A stretch of DNA of 11,616 bases from a virus: the UHGV virus genome UHGV-0128598; one strand, given 5' to 3'. The notes under the pieces were generated by a model. The model worked only from the letters and a program-made list of their open reading frames with translations, did no database searches and was not told the origin of the DNA. Positions 1,797 to 11,616 of this stretch are shown here, in pieces (the first letter of the stretch is position 1; each line of letters opens with the position of its first letter). A program made the translations under genes and the position numbers.

Positions 1797-2323
1797 TGGT
1801 CTATCCCCCAGCACGTCAGCGCGCTTTCCTGGTCACGACGGGATACCTGCCCGTAGCAGTTATTGGAACGGATCCGGCAATCGCGTCCACCGTCTTTTAT
1901 CCACCACCTGATTGCTTCACATGCCCCCTTCCGATCGCCGGCATTGATTCGCTTATAGAACGTGGATGGGAAACACTTGCCGGGGCCGATATTGTACGGG
2001 CAGAACGACGCAATACCTGCTTTCTGCGGTTCAGTCAGCGGCACTTTGATATTGTGCTCTACCCAGGCTAGCGCTTTATCGCGTTCGATAGCGTTTACCT
2101 GGTCACATTTTGCCTGCGTCAGCTTCATACCCTTCACTACAGGCTTACCATCAACCATCGTGGCACCACGGCAAATCGTCCAAATTCCTCCAGCGTCACG
2201 GTATGCGGAGAGACTGTTGCCCTCTTTCTCATTCAGGAACTGATCGAGAATAACCGATGCTGGCGCACCGGCGAGTACCAGTCCCAGAACAGCAGCGCTA
2301 AGCTTAGTCCTGTTGCTGGTCAT
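1793..2323 (-). CDS. SAR endolysin (T4-type lysozyme fold, phage 21 R-like)
   Basis: 176 aa with ATG start and AGAGG ribosome-binding site. N-terminal Gly/Ala-rich weakly hydrophobic segment [19 protein letters not shown] (signal-anchor-release type) followed by the catalytic triad spacing E-x8-D-x5-T in [16 protein letters not shown]. Start overlaps the holin 3' end by 20 nt; stop overlaps the Rz start. Confidence 0.85.
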
Positions 2324-2540
2324 AGAGTTGAGCCTCTTTGCGACGGTCTTCTTTGATTTTGAAATAGAGATTGGTCAGGTAGGTAACCAGCCCCAGAAAT
2401 ATACTCGCCAGCACACCGATAGCAGCCCACTGGCTTGGGCTGACTTTATCGAGTAATTGCAGTAACCAGAAGACGCCACTGCCCCCGGACGTAATATAGG
2501 AAGCACCTGCCGCCAGACCTGAATGGTTGTTCATCCTCAT
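2304..2540 (-). CDS. Pinholin, phage 21 S-like class II holin with dual-start motif
   Basis: 78 aa with two predicted transmembrane segments and a charged C-terminus ([11 protein letters not shown]). Strong resemblance, from memory, to phage 21 S pinholin ([12 protein letters not shown]...[16 protein letters not shown]). Starts M-R-M (ATG AGG ATG), the Met-basic-Met arrangement used for holin/antiholin dual starts. Directly upstream of a SAR endolysin. Confidence 0.8.
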
Positions 2541-2587
2541 ACCTTACCCCCCGTAGGGAACACTATTAAGTGCTCCGAGGGTAAGGT
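2541..2587 (-). promoter_or_regulatory. Hairpin enclosing the holin ribosome-binding site (perfect 9-bp inverted repeat, 29-nt loop)
   Basis: Plus-strand ACCTTACCC at 2541-2549 is the exact reverse complement of GGGTAAGGT at 2579-2587. On the sense (minus) strand the 3' arm GGGUAAGGU sits immediately 5' of the holin AUG and contains the Shine-Dalgarno-like G-rich element. Confidence 0.4.
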
Positions 2588-2595
2588 GGTGATGT

Positions 2596-2610
2596 GGTCG
2601 GAATCCTGAC
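2596..2610. repeat. Copy A (degenerate) of the 16-bp inverted-repeat motif GGTCGGAATCCCGACC
   Basis: GGTCGGAATCCTGAC read directly; differs from copies B and C by one substitution, with the final base absent (next base is T). Lies in the acyltransferase-holin intergenic region, 55 nt upstream of the holin ATG. Confidence 0.6.
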
Positions 2611-2651
2611 TATTGGAGGTATTGACCCGAGAGCCAACATAATGAATTCAT

Positions 2652-3755
2652 TTAGGGTGTATTTAACCCTTTAATTTTTTTATGGCTTAGCAAGCCGAAC
2701 AGGCCCCATATTTTATTAAAGGCGCGTGTTACTTTTTTATCCAGAAGCTTTATGTACAGCGCTGCAATAGTAAACGATATTAACATCGAAATAACTATCG
2801 TCACCTCATAGTTAACAAAAGTCTTCGTAACCGGATATTCAACCCACCACTTCCTTTCAAACATAGCGTGAGACCAAAATCCGATATCGGCATGTATTAA
2901 ATACAGTGGGTATGTCATCGCCCCAAGAAACTTAACAACATTATAAAACTTACCGACTTCAGATACGTTAGATGCACACCAGGTTAACGTAACAAGAGAG
3001 ATACATGCGAGCAGAAGAGATGCATCAGAAACTGAATACCCAAAACTTCCATTTACATATGAATTAAAACCCAACATTCTATTATATATGAGGATCACAC
3101 TAAGAACCATCAAGACGAAATCAAAAGGAGATGGCTTATTTTTCATTATGTCATATATTACTATCCCTGCAATGAAATGACCGGCATGTTCAGTTATAAA
3201 TAGCGCATCAACAAAGCTAGAATGGATTAAAAATTGATTGCTGTATGAAATCACCAACCATGCAAAGCAAATCTCCCTTCTGTAACCACTCCAAATGTTA
3301 AATAACATCATAATGAAAACCAATATATAAAATGTCACCTCTTTCTGAATTGTCCAATAGATATCGCTAAAAAAATGATATCCGAACACTTGGGGGAAAA
3401 ACGTAAAGCTATAGAATAAAGAAACAATCCTTTCCTTAAAATCAACCATTGGTATAAAGCACTGAAACACTAAAACTATAAATCCAAATATTATAAAGGT
3501 GGGTACTATCCTATTAATCCTTGACTTAATAAATTCAACAGGTGTTCTTCCAACTGATGAAAGTGATATTACAAATCCACTTATAATGAAAAATAAATCA
3601 ACACCAAAGTCCCCAAAATAGAAGGCATTAACTGTTAACTCTTTCGGTAGGAAGCCTGAGATAGGCCCAGCGAACAAGTAGTGGTACAACATCACCATCA
3701 TAAATGCCATAAAGCGAAGACCGTCGAGCGCTTCAATCCTTACTGTGGTTTTCAT
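2652..3755 (-). CDS. Integral-membrane acyltransferase, Acyl_transf_3 (OafA/Oac) family; probable O-antigen O-acetyltransferase
   Basis: The track starts at TTG 3758; ATG at 3755 is the likely start (AGAGGA upstream), about 367 aa. Highly hydrophobic with many predicted transmembrane segments and the family motifs: R-x10-H (LDGLRFMAFMMVMLYH), FFxISG (VDLFFIISGFVIS) and RI.P (RINRIVPTF). Markedly AT-rich compared with its neighbours. Confidence 0.85.
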   Translation of the reverse strand: MKTTVRIEALDGLRFMAFMMVMLYHYLFAGPISGFLPKELTVNAFYFGDFGVDLFFIISGFVISLSSVGRTPVEFIKSRINRIVPTFIIFGFIVLVFQCFIPMVDFKERIVSLFYSFTFFPQVFGYHFFSDIYWTIQKEVTFYILVFIMMLFNIWSGYRREICFAWLVISYSNQFLIHSSFVDALFITEHAGHFIAGIVIYDIMKNKPSPFDFVLMVLSVILIYNRMLGFNSYVNGSFGYSVSDASLLLACISLVTLTWCASNVSEVGKFYNVVKFLGAMTYPLYLIHADIGFWSHAMFERKWWVEYPVTKTFVNYEVTIVISMLISFTIAALYIKLLDKKVTRAFNKIWGLFGLLSHKKIKGLNTP

Positions 3756-3760
3756 CAAAT

Positions 3761-3803
3761 CCTCTGGAGTATGCTTTTTACTAAGGAAATCATACCCCAG
3801 AGG
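3761..3803 (-). promoter_or_regulatory. 13-bp inverted repeat (17-nt loop) between tailspike and acyltransferase, enclosing the acyltransferase ribosome-binding site
   Basis: Plus-strand cctctggagtatg (3761-3773) and cataccccagagg (3791-3803) are reverse complements with one mismatch. On the minus-strand RNA that mismatch is a G-U wobble, so all 13 bp pair; on the plus-strand RNA it would be a C-A mismatch. The 3' arm contains the AGAGG element 5 nt before the start. Confidence 0.4.
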
Positions 3804-3819
3804 CTTTACTAATCAAAGT

Positions 3820-6321
3820 TTATCTTGTCAATCGCGCGACGATACCCGCCATGACAAAAACGATTATCTGGTCGTAGTTTAATCCGTATGTGTCGGCCTC
3901 TACATCATGCTCAATCATTTTATACTTTCTGTAATCAAGCCCGTGTCTAGCCATTACCTTCATGACATGCTGTACGGTATACCCAATGTTAACCCCCGCC
4001 TGCTCGCCAAAGTCTCGGCAATCCTTGAGCCACCGGAAAGTACCTGCGCCTAATGCAAGCTCCTGGGATGCTGCAATCTCGGCATCAGTAAATGGTTCAA
4101 TCTCAGTTTTCTGGCGTGCATCAGAGGTAGTAACCACGCCACCTGCTGAATATACACTAGCCCATCTCCTTGAAGAGTTTCCAAGTGTGTAAGTATTGTC
4201 AATATGGGGACCACATGCCCCATTAACATCAAGAGGAAATATTGGATTATCAGTGTTAACCCCAACATTACCACCGCGTGGGTTAATAACTACCTGGTAG
4301 TTATTACCTGATGAATCACTACCCTGAATAAAACCGCCATTAGAACCAGAGTTGCTTAAACATCCAAACTGTAACTCTCTACCACCATCATTATATGAAG
4401 ATCTAAATATTGCTGATGTTTTCAACGTTGAATCTGACAGCGGAATATTTGTTTTATTATCTACAGAAAATAATGCCCTTGGTGTTCCTCCCGTATTCAT
4501 TACCCCAACAAGCCCGCCTGGTGTTATCTCCATAACTTTATGTGGCTTATAGGCCCCATCATCACCATTGTAGAACCGTATGGGGTAATAGTATCCGTTG
4601 CCAGCTATACCGGCTCTAATCTCGTATTCACCAGTCGCTTTTGCAGATATACTGAGATTTTCTTCATCAGCCCCCGTAGTCTTCTGCACGCGGATCGTAC
4701 TTATCTGCGCCCCAATATCGTCACGAATTTTATATGTTGCGCCTGTAGCATTTATAGACGTGTCCTGTAAATTACAGGTGTTGCCGTTATTTGAAATACT
4801 GACAACAGTGCGTAGCGTACCGTTCAGCCAGAATTTATAGGCTCCACTACCGTAACCGAAGAAAAAAAACGGGTCCCCTGACGTTCTGGTGCAAACACCG
4901 TTAATCACGTCACAAATGCCACCACCAGTGGTGTACACATAATGGAATTTTGAGTGCGTACCCACTGCCGCAGTAAGATCCCCGCCGCCTATTTCTGTTA
5001 CGGAAATCTGCCCTGTTGAGGTTAATGCAGTAATTACCAGCGCCCGTTCAAATGCGTATATAGCATCGCCTACTGACCACTTATCTAAGTCGAATAAAGA
5101 GCCACCCTCTCTGACCAGAATATTTTGTGATTGGTGGACTAGTTGACCTTGTGCAGCAGAGCCGTATACAACCACTTCTGAAGGATTGTAATTTTTACTA
5201 GTCTGAATACGCATCCAATTTGCATGACCATCAGATGATAAAAACATACCGTCACCTGAATCCATTAAAGCCCCACCACCGACCTTGAATCCCCCTGAGT
5301 TAGTAGTGGTACCTGCCGAAACAACGCCAGCCCCAAATTTGGTCTCATCTCGTTTACGATACTGGACATTAAGGAATGCCGAGAACGATACTGCTGGTGA
5401 TAAGATTGCCTCGGAGTCCACAACCAGTGTTGGGAGTTTCGCCCACACTAAAGCTATTGGTGTATTGCAAACATAATTCCCCTGCGGAACGTGCAAAGTG
5501 GTACACCCGGAAGGTAGGTTGGATATCATAGAAGCCCAAGCCGCGCTCTCGTCCGAACCATCCCCCCTGACCCCGAAATCTTTTACGCTCAGTGTGTCGG
5601 CGTTTTTATCATGCTGTGTACGCCCCACAGATCCAGAATATGGCTGTTTTACCCCGATAAGAGCATCGCCCTTGCCGCTATCGGTGCTCGCGAGATCTAC
5701 CAAAACATCAGCAGCGCTACCACTCTCTGGACGAACAAATATCGGAGCACCCTCAGCATTGTAAGCCTGTAATCTGTTTGCACGCTGCTCAGCTGGTGCA
5801 AGCGGTGCCACGTAGTTTTCAGGCACGCGCAATGCCCTGTTAAGATTGGTCTGCCCGACCTCCTGCACGTATTTTTTGGTTGCTGCGTCCTGGTCATTAA
5901 CCGGATCCGCAAGGCCGGATATGCGATACCCTTCTGCGTTAAACGGTCCTCCAAGCAACGGGCGACGTAACGCCAGTCCGAGATAAATAAAAGAACGCTG
6001 GATAGCCATCCAGAGGCGGTCAAAATCTTTATTGACGGTATCTGCCAGCAGATCGCCATTGTCCTGGTAATCAGTCAGGCGATAGGTAGGAACAACACGT
6101 TCCAGCATAACAACCGTGCCGTTAGCAGGTGGGGTTAAAAACGTAAGATCACCACCGCTAACGTTACCCACTCCCGACACAGTAAATCCAGTAGTAACAG
6201 GCGTACCATTAAGACTCACCTGAATATCGCTGGCGCTGATGATGTAGAACTCAAAGGGAAAAACGGTCGTCAGACCGTTGGCGTTATAAATAATATAGGG
6301 GGTCTGATTCGGTACCGACAT
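3820..6321 (-). CDS. Tailspike/tail fibre: T7 gp17-like N-terminal anchor, pectate-lyase-like beta-helix depolymerase, C-terminal peptidase S74 intramolecular chaperone
   Basis: 833 aa, ATG start. The N-terminal 150 aa or so resemble, as recalled, the T7 tail-fibre N-terminal domain (VFPFEFY, ERVVPTYRLTDY, ISGLADPVNDQDAATKKYV). The mid region carries the pectate-lyase-3 start signature SVKDFGVRGDGSDESAAWASMISNL. The C-terminus has the autoproteolytic chaperone motif ...SSRRWASVYSAGGVVTTSDARQKTEIEPF. Confidence 0.9.
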   Translation of the reverse strand: MSVPNQTPYIIYNANGLTTVFPFEFYIISASDIQVSLNGTPVTTGFTVSGVGNVSGGDLTFLTPPANGTVVMLERVVPTYRLTDYQDNGDLLADTVNKDFDRLWMAIQRSFIYLGLALRRPLLGGPFNAEGYRISGLADPVNDQDAATKKYVQEVGQTNLNRALRVPENYVAPLAPAEQRANRLQAYNAEGAPIFVRPESGSAADVLVDLASTDSGKGDALIGVKQPYSGSVGRTQHDKNADTLSVKDFGVRGDGSDESAAWASMISNLPSGCTTLHVPQGNYVCNTPIALVWAKLPTLVVDSEAILSPAVSFSAFLNVQYRKRDETKFGAGVVSAGTTTNSGGFKVGGGALMDSGDGMFLSSDGHANWMRIQTSKNYNPSEVVVYGSAAQGQLVHQSQNILVREGGSLFDLDKWSVGDAIYAFERALVITALTSTGQISVTEIGGGDLTAAVGTHSKFHYVYTTGGGICDVINGVCTRTSGDPFFFFGYGSGAYKFWLNGTLRTVVSISNNGNTCNLQDTSINATGATYKIRDDIGAQISTIRVQKTTGADEENLSISAKATGEYEIRAGIAGNGYYYPIRFYNGDDGAYKPHKVMEITPGGLVGVMNTGGTPRALFSVDNKTNIPLSDSTLKTSAIFRSSYNDGGRELQFGCLSNSGSNGGFIQGSDSSGNNYQVVINPRGGNVGVNTDNPIFPLDVNGACGPHIDNTYTLGNSSRRWASVYSAGGVVTTSDARQKTEIEPFTDAEIAASQELALGAGTFRWLKDCRDFGEQAGVNIGYTVQHVMKVMARHGLDYRKYKMIEHDVEADTYGLNYDQIIVFVMAGIVARLTR

Positions 6322-8355: not shown

Positions 8356-9870
8356 TTACCGCATGCCGGGGTCAACCTGATTTATCAGCGGCGCTATCCA
8401 GAAAAGATTATTACCCGGCAGCAGCGTACGCACGTTATGCAGTACCCGATCGCCAGCATCACCGTTGAGCACTCCGGCGGTCACATCGGTGACGGTATCC
8501 AGCAAGCCAAACGTCGGGCCGAGAGCGGAGCCAATAAAGCCACGGCTGGCATAGCGAGACTGTGTGCCGGTACCGAGCAGTGCACCCAGCCCCACCATAC
8601 CGCCGGAGGCTTTTTCTGCCATGTTGTTATATTCCATCAGCGGGCCGAGAATACCGGACCGGTCGATACCTTCAATGGCCAGTTTCTGAGGCGACCAGTC
8701 AACCTCTTTACCATTTGCGGATTGTTTAAGTGCGTACGTCAGTGCGCCGAGGCTAATCTGGAAAGCGGTACCGTAATAAAACTGTCCGGTTCCCTCCTGC
8801 AGGCCGCCCAGCGTTGCGCGGTTGTAGGACGCGGTAGCGAACGATTTAAACTGGAAGATAGTTTTACCCAGTGGCGTGCTGGCCCACAATGGCGTATCGC
8901 CGATCCCCGGTGTGATAACTGTATTGTTAACGTCTTTGAGCACGGCCGACTGAAAAACGCCAGCCACATGCTGATCGTCCCATTTTTCAAAATTGCCGAT
9001 ATGCCAGCCATTGATTACCTCACCGTGTTTTTCGAATTCGCTGCGAATACGCGCGGCCATATTGTCGTTAATGCCGAGCTTGGCAAGGCGGCGGCCCGCA
9101 AACGCGCCGGACAGAATGCCGTCGGAGGTGATCATGCCGTTTACCGATTTGTTCATATCGTCGAAGTGGCCCATCAGCGTGAGCTTGCCGAACGCATCGG
9201 TGACGCGCTCCATTCCCGCCTCTACCGCTGTAGTGCGGGAGGAGCTGTCTACCAGGTCACCCATCGTACGCGCACGGGTATGCAGGATGGTTTCCAGCCC
9301 GACGGCCATTTTTAACTGTTCGGCCCGGCTGGCCTTGAATGCCGGCGACCGGGTTATCAGCGCAGAGTAACCGCGCATGGTATTGCCAAACCCGTTAACC
9401 ATCACACCGCGGGCGAGATCAGGAATAGCGGAAACGGTCATACCGCCCAGCTTGGTGACAAAGTTGGCGCTACGCAGAAACGCACCGGCGCGAACGAAAA
9501 ATGATGATGGGTCATCCGGCATACCGTAGGTACCGACGAGGCGATCGCGAAGCGCCAGAATATCGCGCAGATCGGCTTCGCGCGCCTTCGCCAGCTTTTC
9601 CTGCTCTGCCGGGCGTAACCGCATCAGCGCGTCGTATTCGTCCTGGATGGCAGCGAGCTGCGAATCCAGCGACTTGTTGCCAAAGGTACGGGTTAATTCA
9701 ATTTCCGCTGAGGCTTCGCGGATATGACGCTGCAGGACGTAGTTTGCATCGCTCTCCAGATAATCTTTCATCAGGCGATCGGGAACGCTCAACGTACGCG
9801 ATTTGGTGCTGCCCGGCGATTTCAGCATCTTCGCGGGACATGGTTTTCTCACCGCGTGACCACCAGTCAA
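8356..9870 (-). CDS. Internal virion (ejection) protein, T7 gp16-like, C-terminal portion; apparently separated from the N-terminal portion by a frameshift
   Basis: 504-aa ORF. Gly/Ala-rich hydrophobic stretches and a FQFKSF motif resembling the C-terminal part of T7 gp16 as recalled. The first 30 codons or so look non-protein-like and overlap the upstream ORF, so the true N-terminal boundary is probably the frame junction near 9795-9802. Confidence 0.6.
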   Translation of the reverse strand: MTGGHAVRKPCPAKMLKSPGSTKSRTLSVPDRLMKDYLESDANYVLQRHIREASAEIELTRTFGNKSLDSQLAAIQDEYDALMRLRPAEQEKLAKAREADLRDILALRDRLVGTYGMPDDPSSFFVRAGAFLRSANFVTKLGGMTVSAIPDLARGVMVNGFGNTMRGYSALITRSPAFKASRAEQLKMAVGLETILHTRARTMGDLVDSSSRTTAVEAGMERVTDAFGKLTLMGHFDDMNKSVNGMITSDGILSGAFAGRRLAKLGINDNMAARIRSEFEKHGEVINGWHIGNFEKWDDQHVAGVFQSAVLKDVNNTVITPGIGDTPLWASTPLGKTIFQFKSFATASYNRATLGGLQEGTGQFYYGTAFQISLGALTYALKQSANGKEVDWSPQKLAIEGIDRSGILGPLMEYNNMAEKASGGMVGLGALLGTGTQSRYASRGFIGSALGPTFGLLDTVTDVTAGVLNGDAGDRVLHNVRTLLPGNNLFWIAPLINQVDPGMR

Positions 9871-11182
9871 CCAGCATATTGCGGAATTTATCTCGCTCGC
9901 TAACGATTTTACCCACCTTGTACACGCGCGGAAAATAGCTGGTCTGTCCCATCGCTTTCAGTTCGGCATCCGGCGGGAGTAAGCCCAGTTCCTGCTGGGC
10001 TGTCTTCACGCGGTTAATGACCGTACGCATTGCCTGCGCAGCTTCCTGCACTTTTGCATTAACGTGCACGTCGCCGTTACGCAGCGCCTCGCCAACCTGT
10101 TCACGGAAGGCCGTATAACCCAGATCGCCGCCTTCGGCTTTATACTGGGTGTATGCCTGCTTATTCGCAGTAACGACGGCCGCCTCTTCGCGGTGCCAGC
10201 CACGTACGCGCGTCTCGGCTGCTACCGGTGTTTCGATACCGCGCAGGTTGCCTTCCAGCGTGAAGTTATTCTCCGCCAACTCCAGCGCTGTCCGGCGCGC
10301 TTCTTTTGATGGGGATTCCATCAGGCGGGTGATCGGCGTCAGATAGCTACCGGCCTTTTTAGCCAGCTTGCCGAGCGGGCCGCCAGACACCGGTGTGAGG
10401 TCTTCCAGCGTTGCTTCGCGAATACGCATGGCGCCGACGCTGCCACCGTTCGGTAAAGTATCCGCCAGGGCGTCAGCTGCGTTGTTAATCGTTGGCGCGG
10501 CATTCATGTTATCGAGCGCCTCCGCCACTTCCCGTGTAGCCGCGTTTCTTACCGATGGGGTGATCATCGCGCCAGCAGTAGCAAATACACCGCTGAGAAG
10601 CGCGCCGGCTGTAATGTGCGCGGCGCTCTCCCTTGCTGTTCTGGTGTACTGCTCGTTATTGAGCGCAACCTCGCTAAGTGCGGTACCGGCGGCGCCAATA
10701 GCAATCTGAGAACCAATACGAGCAGCCAGGCTTCCCTGCGCACCGGGAATAAACATCGATGCGACCGTGACAGGGTCGATAACCCCGGCGGCGATACTGG
10801 CCAGAGTTCCTTCAGCGCCTGCCTCAGACAAAACCCGACGGTCTTCATTTTCATCGTCTATCTGGTTTTTTATCCAGGCGGTTTCCTCTGGCGATCGAGA
10901 ATCCGCAAAGGCGGATCCCCATTGTTCGTACCCCTTTAGTTCGTTTTTATCAGAATAAGGGTTATACCCGTCCGCCGGTTCGAATTGTTTGGCCGAGCGG
11001 AACATTCCAGCCAGCAGGTTATTCTGACGAAATGCAGCGCCCCACACAGACGGCTCATCCTGCTGAGGTGCTGGGTTAGTACCTTCAGGCAAAGGCACAT
11101 CAAATCCGGTAGGTGCAGCCAGGACATTACCCGCCGGAGTGAATCCGTTATTGAGTTCTTCAGGGGTGGCGTATACCGGCAT
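9698..11182 (-). CDS. Internal virion (ejection) protein, T7 gp16-like, N-terminal/central portion
   Basis: 494-aa ORF, ATG start overlapping the upstream stop (TAATG). Motifs resemble T7 gp16 as recalled: TPEEL, SEAGAEGTLASIAAGVIDPVTVASMFIPG (compare AGIIGAGVDPLSYVPMVG) and EKTMSREDAEI (compare AKMSREETRY). The last 30 codons or so are low-complexity and overlap the next ORF in another frame. No N-terminal transglycosylase-like region is evident. Confidence 0.6.
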   Translation of the reverse strand: MPVYATPEELNNGFTPAGNVLAAPTGFDVPLPEGTNPAPQQDEPSVWGAAFRQNNLLAGMFRSAKQFEPADGYNPYSDKNELKGYEQWGSAFADSRSPEETAWIKNQIDDENEDRRVLSEAGAEGTLASIAAGVIDPVTVASMFIPGAQGSLAARIGSQIAIGAAGTALSEVALNNEQYTRTARESAAHITAGALLSGVFATAGAMITPSVRNAATREVAEALDNMNAAPTINNAADALADTLPNGGSVGAMRIREATLEDLTPVSGGPLGKLAKKAGSYLTPITRLMESPSKEARRTALELAENNFTLEGNLRGIETPVAAETRVRGWHREEAAVVTANKQAYTQYKAEGGDLGYTAFREQVGEALRNGDVHVNAKVQEAAQAMRTVINRVKTAQQELGLLPPDAELKAMGQTSYFPRVYKVGKIVSERDKFRNMLVDWWSRGEKTMSREDAEIAGQHQIAYVERSRSPDERLSGERCKLRPAASYPRSLSGN

Positions 11183-11577
11183 TATTCAGTGCTCCACGAA
11201 AAGTAATTTTTAACCCTGTCCATGCGCTCGTTATGCAGGCGCTTGTACTGCTCATCGAGCGCACGGTGCTTATCTTTGAACCCACGAATATCCTGCCCGC
11301 GTTGCAGCTCATTGCGATCATGTTCTTCGCGCTCTTCCTGCATTTTTTTGTATGGCGCCCACTCTTCCAGTGACGGTTTCCAGCGCATCGGCCTGCCGTA
11401 CGAATCGTAGAACGGTTGTACCGCCTCGATACCATCCTTATCTTTTGTTCGCACCATGATGGCGTAATCGCCATTGCGGGCCGTCAGTACATCAGGGGTA
11501 ATTTCCAGATCGCCGCCAATACGCGACTCCGGCGTTTTGCTGGTGACAGGCGCTGCGTTACCGGGTGATGCTGCCAA
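11182..11577 (-). CDS. Hypothetical protein, translationally coupled to the gp16-like gene
   Basis: The track ORF starts at a TTG (11577) with no ribosome-binding site. The first ATG is at 11457 (MVRTKDKDG..., about 91 aa). Charged, helix-like C-terminus. Stop overlaps the next start (TAATG). A different frame is open from the window edge to a stop at 11484-11486, so an upstream gene may be cut by the window. Start and reality of this ORF are uncertain. Confidence 0.35.
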   Translation of the reverse strand: MAASPGNAAPVTSKTPESRIGGDLEITPDVLTARNGDYAIMVRTKDKDGIEAVQPFYDSYGRPMRWKPSLEEWAPYKKMQEEREEHDRNELQRGQDIRGFKDKHRALDEQYKRLHNERMDRVKNYFSWSTE

Positions 11578-11616
11578 CTTACTGATTTAGTGTATGATGG
11601 TGTTTTTGAGGTGCTC

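Follow-up and report, generated by a model that had tools for sequence, protein, structure and literature searches.

What is a long and stable hairpin doing on the ribosome-binding site of a cargo gene that lies between the tail-fibre gene and the lysis genes of a prophage? The window, i.e. the whole 11,616-nt stretch of DNA that was analysed (UHGV virus genome UHGV-0128598), is an Escherichia coli prophage integrated at dusA. Its positions 2400-4400 are 100% identical to the prophage of E. coli STEC383 and 99.9% identical to that of B379, and hundreds of draft assemblies contain the prophage. Among cultured phages, the Yersinia phages YeP4-6 are closest to it (TerL identity of 77%). The gene content includes a LexA-like repressor, a DNA polymerase, and a VapE primase; it includes no phage RNA polymerase, so the relevant enzyme is the host sigma70 RNA polymerase. 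When searched as DNA against 50,697 phage records, the spacer that holds the hairpin gave no match, and the whole window matched only in the integrase, the lysozyme, and IS1. All genes around the hairpin are on the minus strand (Table 1). An earlier, sequence-only reading of this DNA had named its neighbours a tailspike and an acyltransferase. The latter assignment stands (Acyl_transf_3), and the upstream protein is better described as a tail fibre of 833 aa with a T7-type N-domain and a Peptidase_S74 domain. The tail-fibre gene is the presumed source of read-through late transcripts.

Table 1. Coordinates of the features of the locus, numbered from the first letter of the window.
Feature	Position	Strand	Remarks
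Large terminase	7953-6343	-	First in transcription order
Tail-fibre gene	3820..6321	-	833 aa; T7-type tail-fibre N-domain and Peptidase_S74 C-terminal intramolecular chaperone
Tail-fibre stop codon	3822-3820	-	TAA
Moron insertion	approx. 2612..3819	-	Promoter, hairpin, CDS, and short tail, as compared with the cargo-free relative L196
-35-like hexamer	3816-3811	-	TTGATT; promoter scan; begins 3 nt past the tail-fibre stop
Hairpin 5' arm	3803-3791	-	CCUCUGGGGUAUG; made up of the anti-SD mimic CCUCU of the promoter spacer and the first bases of the -10 box
-10-like hexamer	3794-3789	-	TATGAT; promoter scan; bases 1-4 (UAUG) form the top of the 5' arm
Hairpin loop	3790-3774	-	17 nt
Hairpin 3' arm	3773-3761	-	CAUACUCCAGAGG
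Shine-Dalgarno (SD) of the acyltransferase gene	3765-3760	-	AGAGGA; 5 nt before ATG 3755
Acyltransferase CDS	2652..3755	-	367 aa; Acyl_transf_3/OafA-like; ATG at 3755
Class II holin	2540/2534-2304	-	
Lysozyme (endolysin)	2323-1793	-	
Tyrosine integrase	beside dusA	opposite to the other genes	

Some features of the window concern the state of this prophage copy. The right end of the window (11565-11616) is an IS1 terminal repeat, inserted in the gene of an internal virion protein with an SLT domain. At about 9814-9828, the window is devoid of roughly 50-60 nt that STEC383 has inside a virion gene of 967 aa, and this deletion splits the gene into the ORFs 8356-9870 and 9698-11182. The SLT gene of the STEC383 prophage copy is frameshifted. 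The window copy is thus probably defective, and both prophages may be.

The two arms of the hairpin pair over 13 consecutive base pairs in the minus-strand RNA, with a single wobble (G3796-U3768). Folded alone, the hairpin has a free energy of -20.0 kcal/mol (z = -4.5), and none of 200 dinucleotide shuffles folds as well. In a scan of both strands of the 11.6-kb window that required a stem of 12 bp or more, no more than one G-U pair, and a loop of 3-20 nt, the hairpin at 3761-3803 was the only match. Local shuffling of the sequence yields, per window, 0.06 stems of 13 bp or longer. The upper segment of the 5' arm (GGGGUAUG) has its partner at 3773-3766, clear of the SD. The covariance models of Rfam 15, run on both strands of the region 2300-4100, gave no match at 3761-3803; the sole match in this region lies elsewhere and is at chance level (E = 0.81). 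The sequence-only reading had placed a 13-bp inverted repeat at 3761-3803, with an AGAGG element in its 3' arm, and had proposed in-silico folding as a check. The coordinates are exact, the element is part of the SD 5 nt upstream of the start codon, and folding recovers the 13-bp sense-strand hairpin.

That reading had also held that the hairpin is strand-specific and that this asymmetry speaks for a function at the level of RNA. It is correct that the wobble position becomes an A/C mismatch in the plus-strand RNA, yet the antisense hairpin still reaches -18.9 kcal/mol, a gap of only about 1 kcal/mol. In the 86-nt context, the sense strand folds at -23.8 and the antisense strand at -22.8 kcal/mol, with z-scores of -3.6 vs -3.8. 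Among the homologues, the difference between sense and antisense has no consistent sign. The asymmetry is therefore a weak argument.

A feature that the earlier reading overlooked changes the way in which the hairpin can be interpreted: the 5' arm also contains a promoter-like element. The spacer between the tail-fibre stop and ATG 3755 is only 64 nt long, and within it the promoter scan finds a sigma70-type match consisting of TTGATT, 16 nt, and TATGAT. Taken alone, this match is no better than chance, as 10 promoter-like sites were found in 4.1 kb vs 8.4 expected. No other promoter-like site lies on this strand in the spacer or close to it, and this one overlaps the 5' arm. As far as the sequence tells, the putative promoter thus lies within the DNA of the 5' strand of the helix. 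Given the usual spacing from the -10 box (about 7 nt past it), transcription would start at about A3782/G3781, i.e. inside the loop of the hairpin. With a start within the loop, the RNA initiated at this promoter could not form the hairpin.

The conservation of this arrangement was analysed in seven distinct upstream regions of homologous genes, whose proteins are 63-89% identical. One of them is the window region, identical in E. coli and Shimwellia, and the others are those of L093 (89% protein identity), L008 (80%, identical to Phytobacter L206), L171 (73%), L009 (72%), L172 (72%), and L011 from Biostraticola (63%). All seven have a -35-like hexamer (TTGATT in three regions, TTGATA in two, TTAATT and GTCATA in one each) followed, after exactly 16 nt, by TATGAT (six of the seven) or TATTAT (one of the seven), and the motif stands 31-43 nt before the start codon. 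The start of the acyltransferase is itself kept as ATGAAAAC. The promoter is the best-conserved feature of the spacer: mean pairwise identity is 0.88 for GG plus the -10 box and 0.77 for the -35 hexamer, to be compared with 0.83 for the SD, and with 0.35 and 0.31 for the non-stem half of the promoter spacer and the loop, respectively. L171 and L093 still have the promoter although they have lost the hairpin. Two parts of the stem are explained by neither the promoter nor the SD: the anti-SD part of the 5' arm (0.65) and the upper 3' arm (0.57; CAUAC in the 5' UTR). Both are conserved above the background, at about twice the level of the adjacent non-stem bases, and this supports a role of the hairpin in the RNA.

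The pairing itself was evaluated in two ways. Column-wise covariation in the alignment of the seven sequences is not significant, with 83% of the cells paired vs 83.8% in partner shuffles, and there is one compensatory pair. What keeps the pairing is thus mainly the conservation of the sequence, in a set of no more than seven related regions. We then measured the complementarity between the promoter spacer plus -10 box and the 5' UTR plus SD, keeping the -10 and the SD fixed and shuffling the free partners. In this comparison, four of the seven regions are more complementary than their shuffles: the window (p = 0.001), L008 (p = 0.002), L172 (p = 0.004), and L011 (p = 0.010), which also favours a role in the RNA. 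There is no such excess in the remaining three, i.e. L093 (p = 0.17), L009 (p = 0.35), and L171 (p = 0.78). The stems of the homologues have 7-10 bp. In L172, the SD (AGGUGAU) is matched by the 5' partner GAUUACC in a shifted register, in addition to a 10-bp upper helix, and in L011 it is the lower helix that has been lengthened instead (CCCUCUG/CAGAGGG).

The genomic context of these regions also differs. There is no trace of a tail-fibre gene upstream in L009 and L171, both of which are at chance level for complementarity, and the other homologues have at least a fragment of the S74 C-terminus upstream. It is thus suggestive, and only that, that retention of the hairpin tracks the phage context; the link is weakened by most homologues carrying mere fragments of the tail-fibre gene, since the upstream ORF is intact only in the E. 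coli/Shimwellia type. Fifteen E. coli and Shimwellia copies were compared, and they contain no natural variants of the spacer, all of them being identical. The cassette comprising the tail-fibre end, the spacer, and the acyltransferase gene is found at 99% identity in another genus, in L013, L012 (Shimwellia pseudoproteus), and L098. There, the acyltransferase gene is split between two contigs near residues 150-179, perhaps by an inserted IS element. The 80%-identical homologue of L206 (3411-7095, in a Phytobacter/Citrobacter bitternis chromosome) has the same promoter and a degraded hairpin, and it lies in a small integrase-associated island adjoining a retron-type defence gene, with only a fragment of the tail-fibre C-terminus upstream. 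This island looks like a decayed prophage that kept its cargo.

Broader searches did not enlarge this set. The protein-guided search of IMG/VR with a single protein found nothing, and with an alignment as query it yielded no relatives above 40% identity, and the upstream regions of those that it did yield are unrelated. The pattern TATGAT...CAGAGG...ATGAAAAC had seven matches in IMG/VR; all were chance matches and none involved an acyltransferase. The covariance model of promoter, hairpin, and SD, run against about 180 fetched loci (~0.95 Mb), recovered the training sequences and one chance match (E = 0.3).

How did the acyltransferase gene come to lie in this operon? Morons, the "more DNA" of HK97- and lambda-type phages, are units of promoter, gene, and terminator inserted between late genes. 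The acyltransferase gene is a moron. Its GC content is 29-41%, compared with about 50-56% in the flanking backbone of lysis and terminase genes, and it separates two backbone genes that are neighbours in a relative. In L196 (E. coli 23GD11002), there is no cargo gene: the tail-fibre stop is followed by 2 nt and then by TCAGGATTCCGACC and the holin leader, and the backbone sequence of L196 resumes in the window at about 2611. The homology of L181 to the window resumes at about 2629. At the same site, L195 (E. coli EC2, 3658-4812) has an unrelated acyltransferase (21% local identity, E = 0.017) in the opposite orientation; with this orientation, the cargo there cannot be translated from late RNA either. 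The junction between tail fibre and holin is thus a cargo hot-spot of this prophage family, found empty or with cargo in reverse or forward orientation. In L196 (region 2811-5100), in which the junction is empty, the tail protein is annotated as sialate O-acetylesterase. The window insertion has, in the conserved motif described above, a candidate for its own promoter; it has no terminator of its own on the sense strand between the stop at 2652 and the holin start, and the holin leader folds but has no U-tract. With no sense-strand terminator after the cargo gene, transcription begun at the moron promoter might continue into the holin leader. On the plus strand, a terminator-like hairpin followed by a T-run (AGGGTGTATTTAACCCT TTAATTTTTT, 2654-2680) lies antisense to the acyltransferase gene and overlaps its stop codon.

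The closest non-phage homologues of the acyltransferase are 58-71% identical (L173, L178 (Klebsiella), L174-L177, and L179). They are encoded in enterobacterial polysaccharide or O-antigen clusters, together with glycosyltransferases, WsaF-like proteins, and ABC transporters, and their upstream regions are unrelated to that of the window. This suggests that the phage took the acyltransferase gene from such a cluster and gained the leader with promoter and hairpin separately. We take the cargo to be an acyltransferase of the O-antigen/LPS type.

The holin gene that follows the cargo has a long hairpin of its own just before it (2542-2586, minus strand). Its outer stem is CCUUACCC...GGGUAAGG and its inner stem GGAGCACU/AGUGUUCC; it buries a purine-rich SD region and abuts the dual start AUG-AGG-AUG (M-R-M), formed by ATG 2540 and ATG 2534. 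For the 161-nt holin leader, the folding energy is -55.3 kcal/mol (z = -4.1). Three other prophages (L181, L195, and L196) share the outer stem and the dual start; their inner stem has a different sequence that can still pair. This hairpin resembles the "sdi" structure of lambda S, which sets the ratio of holin to antiholin.

The consequences of the acyltransferase hairpin for translation should depend on where the RNA begins. Opening the 10-nt SD region is predicted to cost 15.8 kcal/mol in the read-through RNA vs 2.8 in an RNA that begins at the predicted +1. When the upstream part is shuffled, the cost is 4.8 +/- 2.1 kcal/mol, and none of 100 shuffles reaches 15.8. The short RNA of 42 nt (3782-3741) folds at only -1.3 kcal/mol, no better than its shuffles. 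The occlusion of the ribosome-binding site that had been suggested from the sequence is thus supported, with the SD lying in silico within a stable helix on transcripts initiated upstream. Predicted occlusion varies among the homologues. Only the window reaches a high cost (15.8); L093 and L008 are intermediate (about 9-10), L172 shows weak occlusion, and L009, L011, and L171 show none.

The reading that we prefer, and to which we give a little less than an even chance, is that the hairpin is a translational lock that acts on read-through late RNA only and is bypassed by the cargo gene's own promoter in the 5' arm. Read-through transcripts from the tail-fibre gene would carry both arms as they cross the 64-nt spacer; the anti-SD mimic CCUCU and the bases that follow it would then pair with the SD region, and ribosomes would not initiate on the acyltransferase ORF. 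The DNA of the 5' arm would double as the spacer and -10 box of the sigma70-type promoter, whose RNA, starting in the loop (about 3782), would be free of the 5' arm and essentially unstructured, leaving the SD accessible. In the lysogen, where no other transcription is expected, the acyltransferase would thus be translated from RNA of its own promoter; it would be translationally silent on the late read-through RNA, which must cross the gene to reach the holin and the endolysin. The benefit could be, e.g., that a polytopic membrane protein is not over-produced or that the timing of lysis is not disturbed.

The hairpin might instead be part of every acyltransferase mRNA, if the true start lies upstream of 3803, and keep expression low or stabilise the 5' end of the transcript. 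The SD does lie in a stable helix and the arm partners are more conserved than their surroundings, as this would demand, yet no promoter-like site is visible upstream of 3803; the sole one in or near the spacer overlaps the 5' arm and is the best-conserved element. Quantitative work on the structure of ribosome-binding sites indicates that a helix of -20 kcal/mol over the SD should almost abolish initiation, which would leave the cargo gene nearly useless in the lysogen, and homologues without the hairpin (L171, L093) have nonetheless retained the promoter. We therefore regard this explanation as improbable. The sequence-only reading had raised such throttling of the cargo gene, which may be right for the read-through RNA of the tail-fibre gene (the more likely case) and is unlikely for the gene's own mRNA: with a conserved sigma70-type promoter overlapping the 5' arm, its transcripts would lack that arm. 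The hairpin is also no candidate for an RNA thermometer, as a 13-bp stem of -20 kcal/mol is far too stable when compared with ROSE and fourU elements. It could rather punctuate the transcript, either as a weak intrinsic terminator or as a site where RNase III or another activity splits the tail-fibre mRNA from the downstream RNA. The stem is intergenic with a GC-rich base, it is flanked by AAAG upstream and AUUU downstream, and its full arms extend to 21 nt and are 86% complementary. The flanking AAA/UUU pairs are not predicted to form, so that the stem stays at 13 continuous bp, shorter than the substrates typical of RNase III, which span roughly two helical turns (around 20 bp), and the stems of the homologues are shorter still. 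Nor is it convincing as a Rho-independent terminator, and the partial termination proposed earlier finds no support: the stem is followed by UUU only, without a U-tract, the tail AUUUGAUG has 4 U in 8 nt, the loop is of 17 nt, the terminator scan is silent, and the tail differs in the homologues (GUUCC in L093, GGUAU in L011). Moreover, the downstream holin and endolysin genes rely on the same late transcription. Punctuation of the transcript seems slightly less probable than a general throttle of expression.

The repeat could also act as DNA, with the 13-bp arms binding a dimeric regulator from -14 to about +22 of the moron promoter. It overlaps the -10 box and the early transcribed region and, as DNA, is symmetric at 12 of 13 positions; against this, a search of the prophage that allowed up to 2 mismatches gave no other copy of the arm, where operators tend to recur at the promoters under their control, the centres of the arms are 30 bp apart, a spacing atypical for operators, and L009 and L172 pair via G-U wobbles or in a shifted register, which in DNA are mismatches. 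The SD already accounts for one arm and the -10 box for the other. A repressor operator is thus very unlikely. A different kind of objection is that the hairpin has no selected function. It could be inherited baggage, or the trivial encounter of a CU-rich promoter spacer with a purine-rich SD, in an E. coli copy that is young and clonal. With so few sequences, all of them related, and without covariation, this has to be taken seriously, although on balance we find it unlikely. It would fit the non-significant covariation, the degraded or chance-level hairpin in three of the seven homologues, the identity of all E. coli copies, and the fact that the prophage copies may be defective. It does not easily account for a perfect 13-bp stem, which is expected 0.06 times per window, being placed exactly on the SD in a 64-nt spacer, for the elevated conservation of the arm partners, or for L172 and L011 keeping the SD paired by different sequences and registers.

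If the translational lock on read-through RNA is real, it shows how a cargo gene can be housed in an essential late operon without interference between the expression programmes, using one 64-nt spacer as promoter, 5' UTR, and read-through-specific lock. It would extend to lysogenic conversion genes (lysogen vs late) a mechanism of lytic T4 (early vs late). It would also provide a sequence signature by which other morons could be screened, namely a promoter spacer that contains an anti-SD, and it would imply that after induction, RNA-seq reads over such cargo genes are no proof that the protein is made. One may go further and see in the anti-SD within the promoter a general device by which late operons insulate the morons that they carry in forward orientation, an idea that we consider conceivable and rather doubtful. 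Such a device would make translation of the cargo specific to the lysogen promoter and let late transcription pass, untranslated, to the lysis genes; the insertion in opposite orientation at the same site of the sister prophage would then be an alternative solution to the same problem. The finding is computational and concerns seven related sequences, and it is a well-defined, testable hypothesis rather than a discovery.

The locus shares features with several known systems. With Rho-independent terminators and insulating hairpins, it has in common an intergenic, GC-based stem-loop right after a stop codon; it differs from the terminators by the missing U-tract, the length of the loop, and the unconserved tail. 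The acyltransferase resembles the phage O-antigen acetyltransferases, of which Sf6 Oac is a phage-borne example, in being a membrane enzyme of the Acyl_transf_3 family encoded by a temperate podovirus beside a receptor-binding tail protein. The known phage O-acetylases (Salmonella BTP1 GtrC, g341c) are only about 26% identical to it, and in the literature searched no comparable promoter or hairpin is documented at phage O-antigen acetyltransferase genes. Like morons, the insertion is an extra gene of deviant GC content between backbone genes, with a promoter-like element and a function of the lysogenic-conversion type; unlike the unit that defines morons, it has no predicted 3' intrinsic terminator, and it has an anti-SD built into its promoter. 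We found in the literature searched no equivalent arrangement of promoter and anti-SD in morons or lysogenic-conversion genes, the only precedent there being T4.

In T4, the long transcripts of e, soc, 49, and I-TevI sequester the ribosome-binding site, and promoters in the DNA of the 5' strand give short transcripts that can be translated (PMC3014915). The class formed by T4 e (lysozyme), soc, 49, and I-TevI, which also includes Aeh1 mobE, thus combines an RBS-sequestering hairpin with a promoter in the 5'-strand DNA, as seems to be the case here, and the predicted geometry is identical, with the -10 in the 5' arm and the putative +1 in the loop. There is no sequence homology between them, and the candidate promoter is of the sigma70 type, as opposed to the T4 late promoter TATAAATA. 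The timing would be reversed: here it is the late RNA that would be long and silent, and the short active RNA would belong to the lysogen or be made constitutively. Moreover, the gene concerned is a horizontally acquired cargo in a temperate prophage. With these differences, the spacer may represent, in our tentative judgement and with nearly even chances, an instance of the known T4 mechanism in a new setting, that of a lysogenic-conversion moron.
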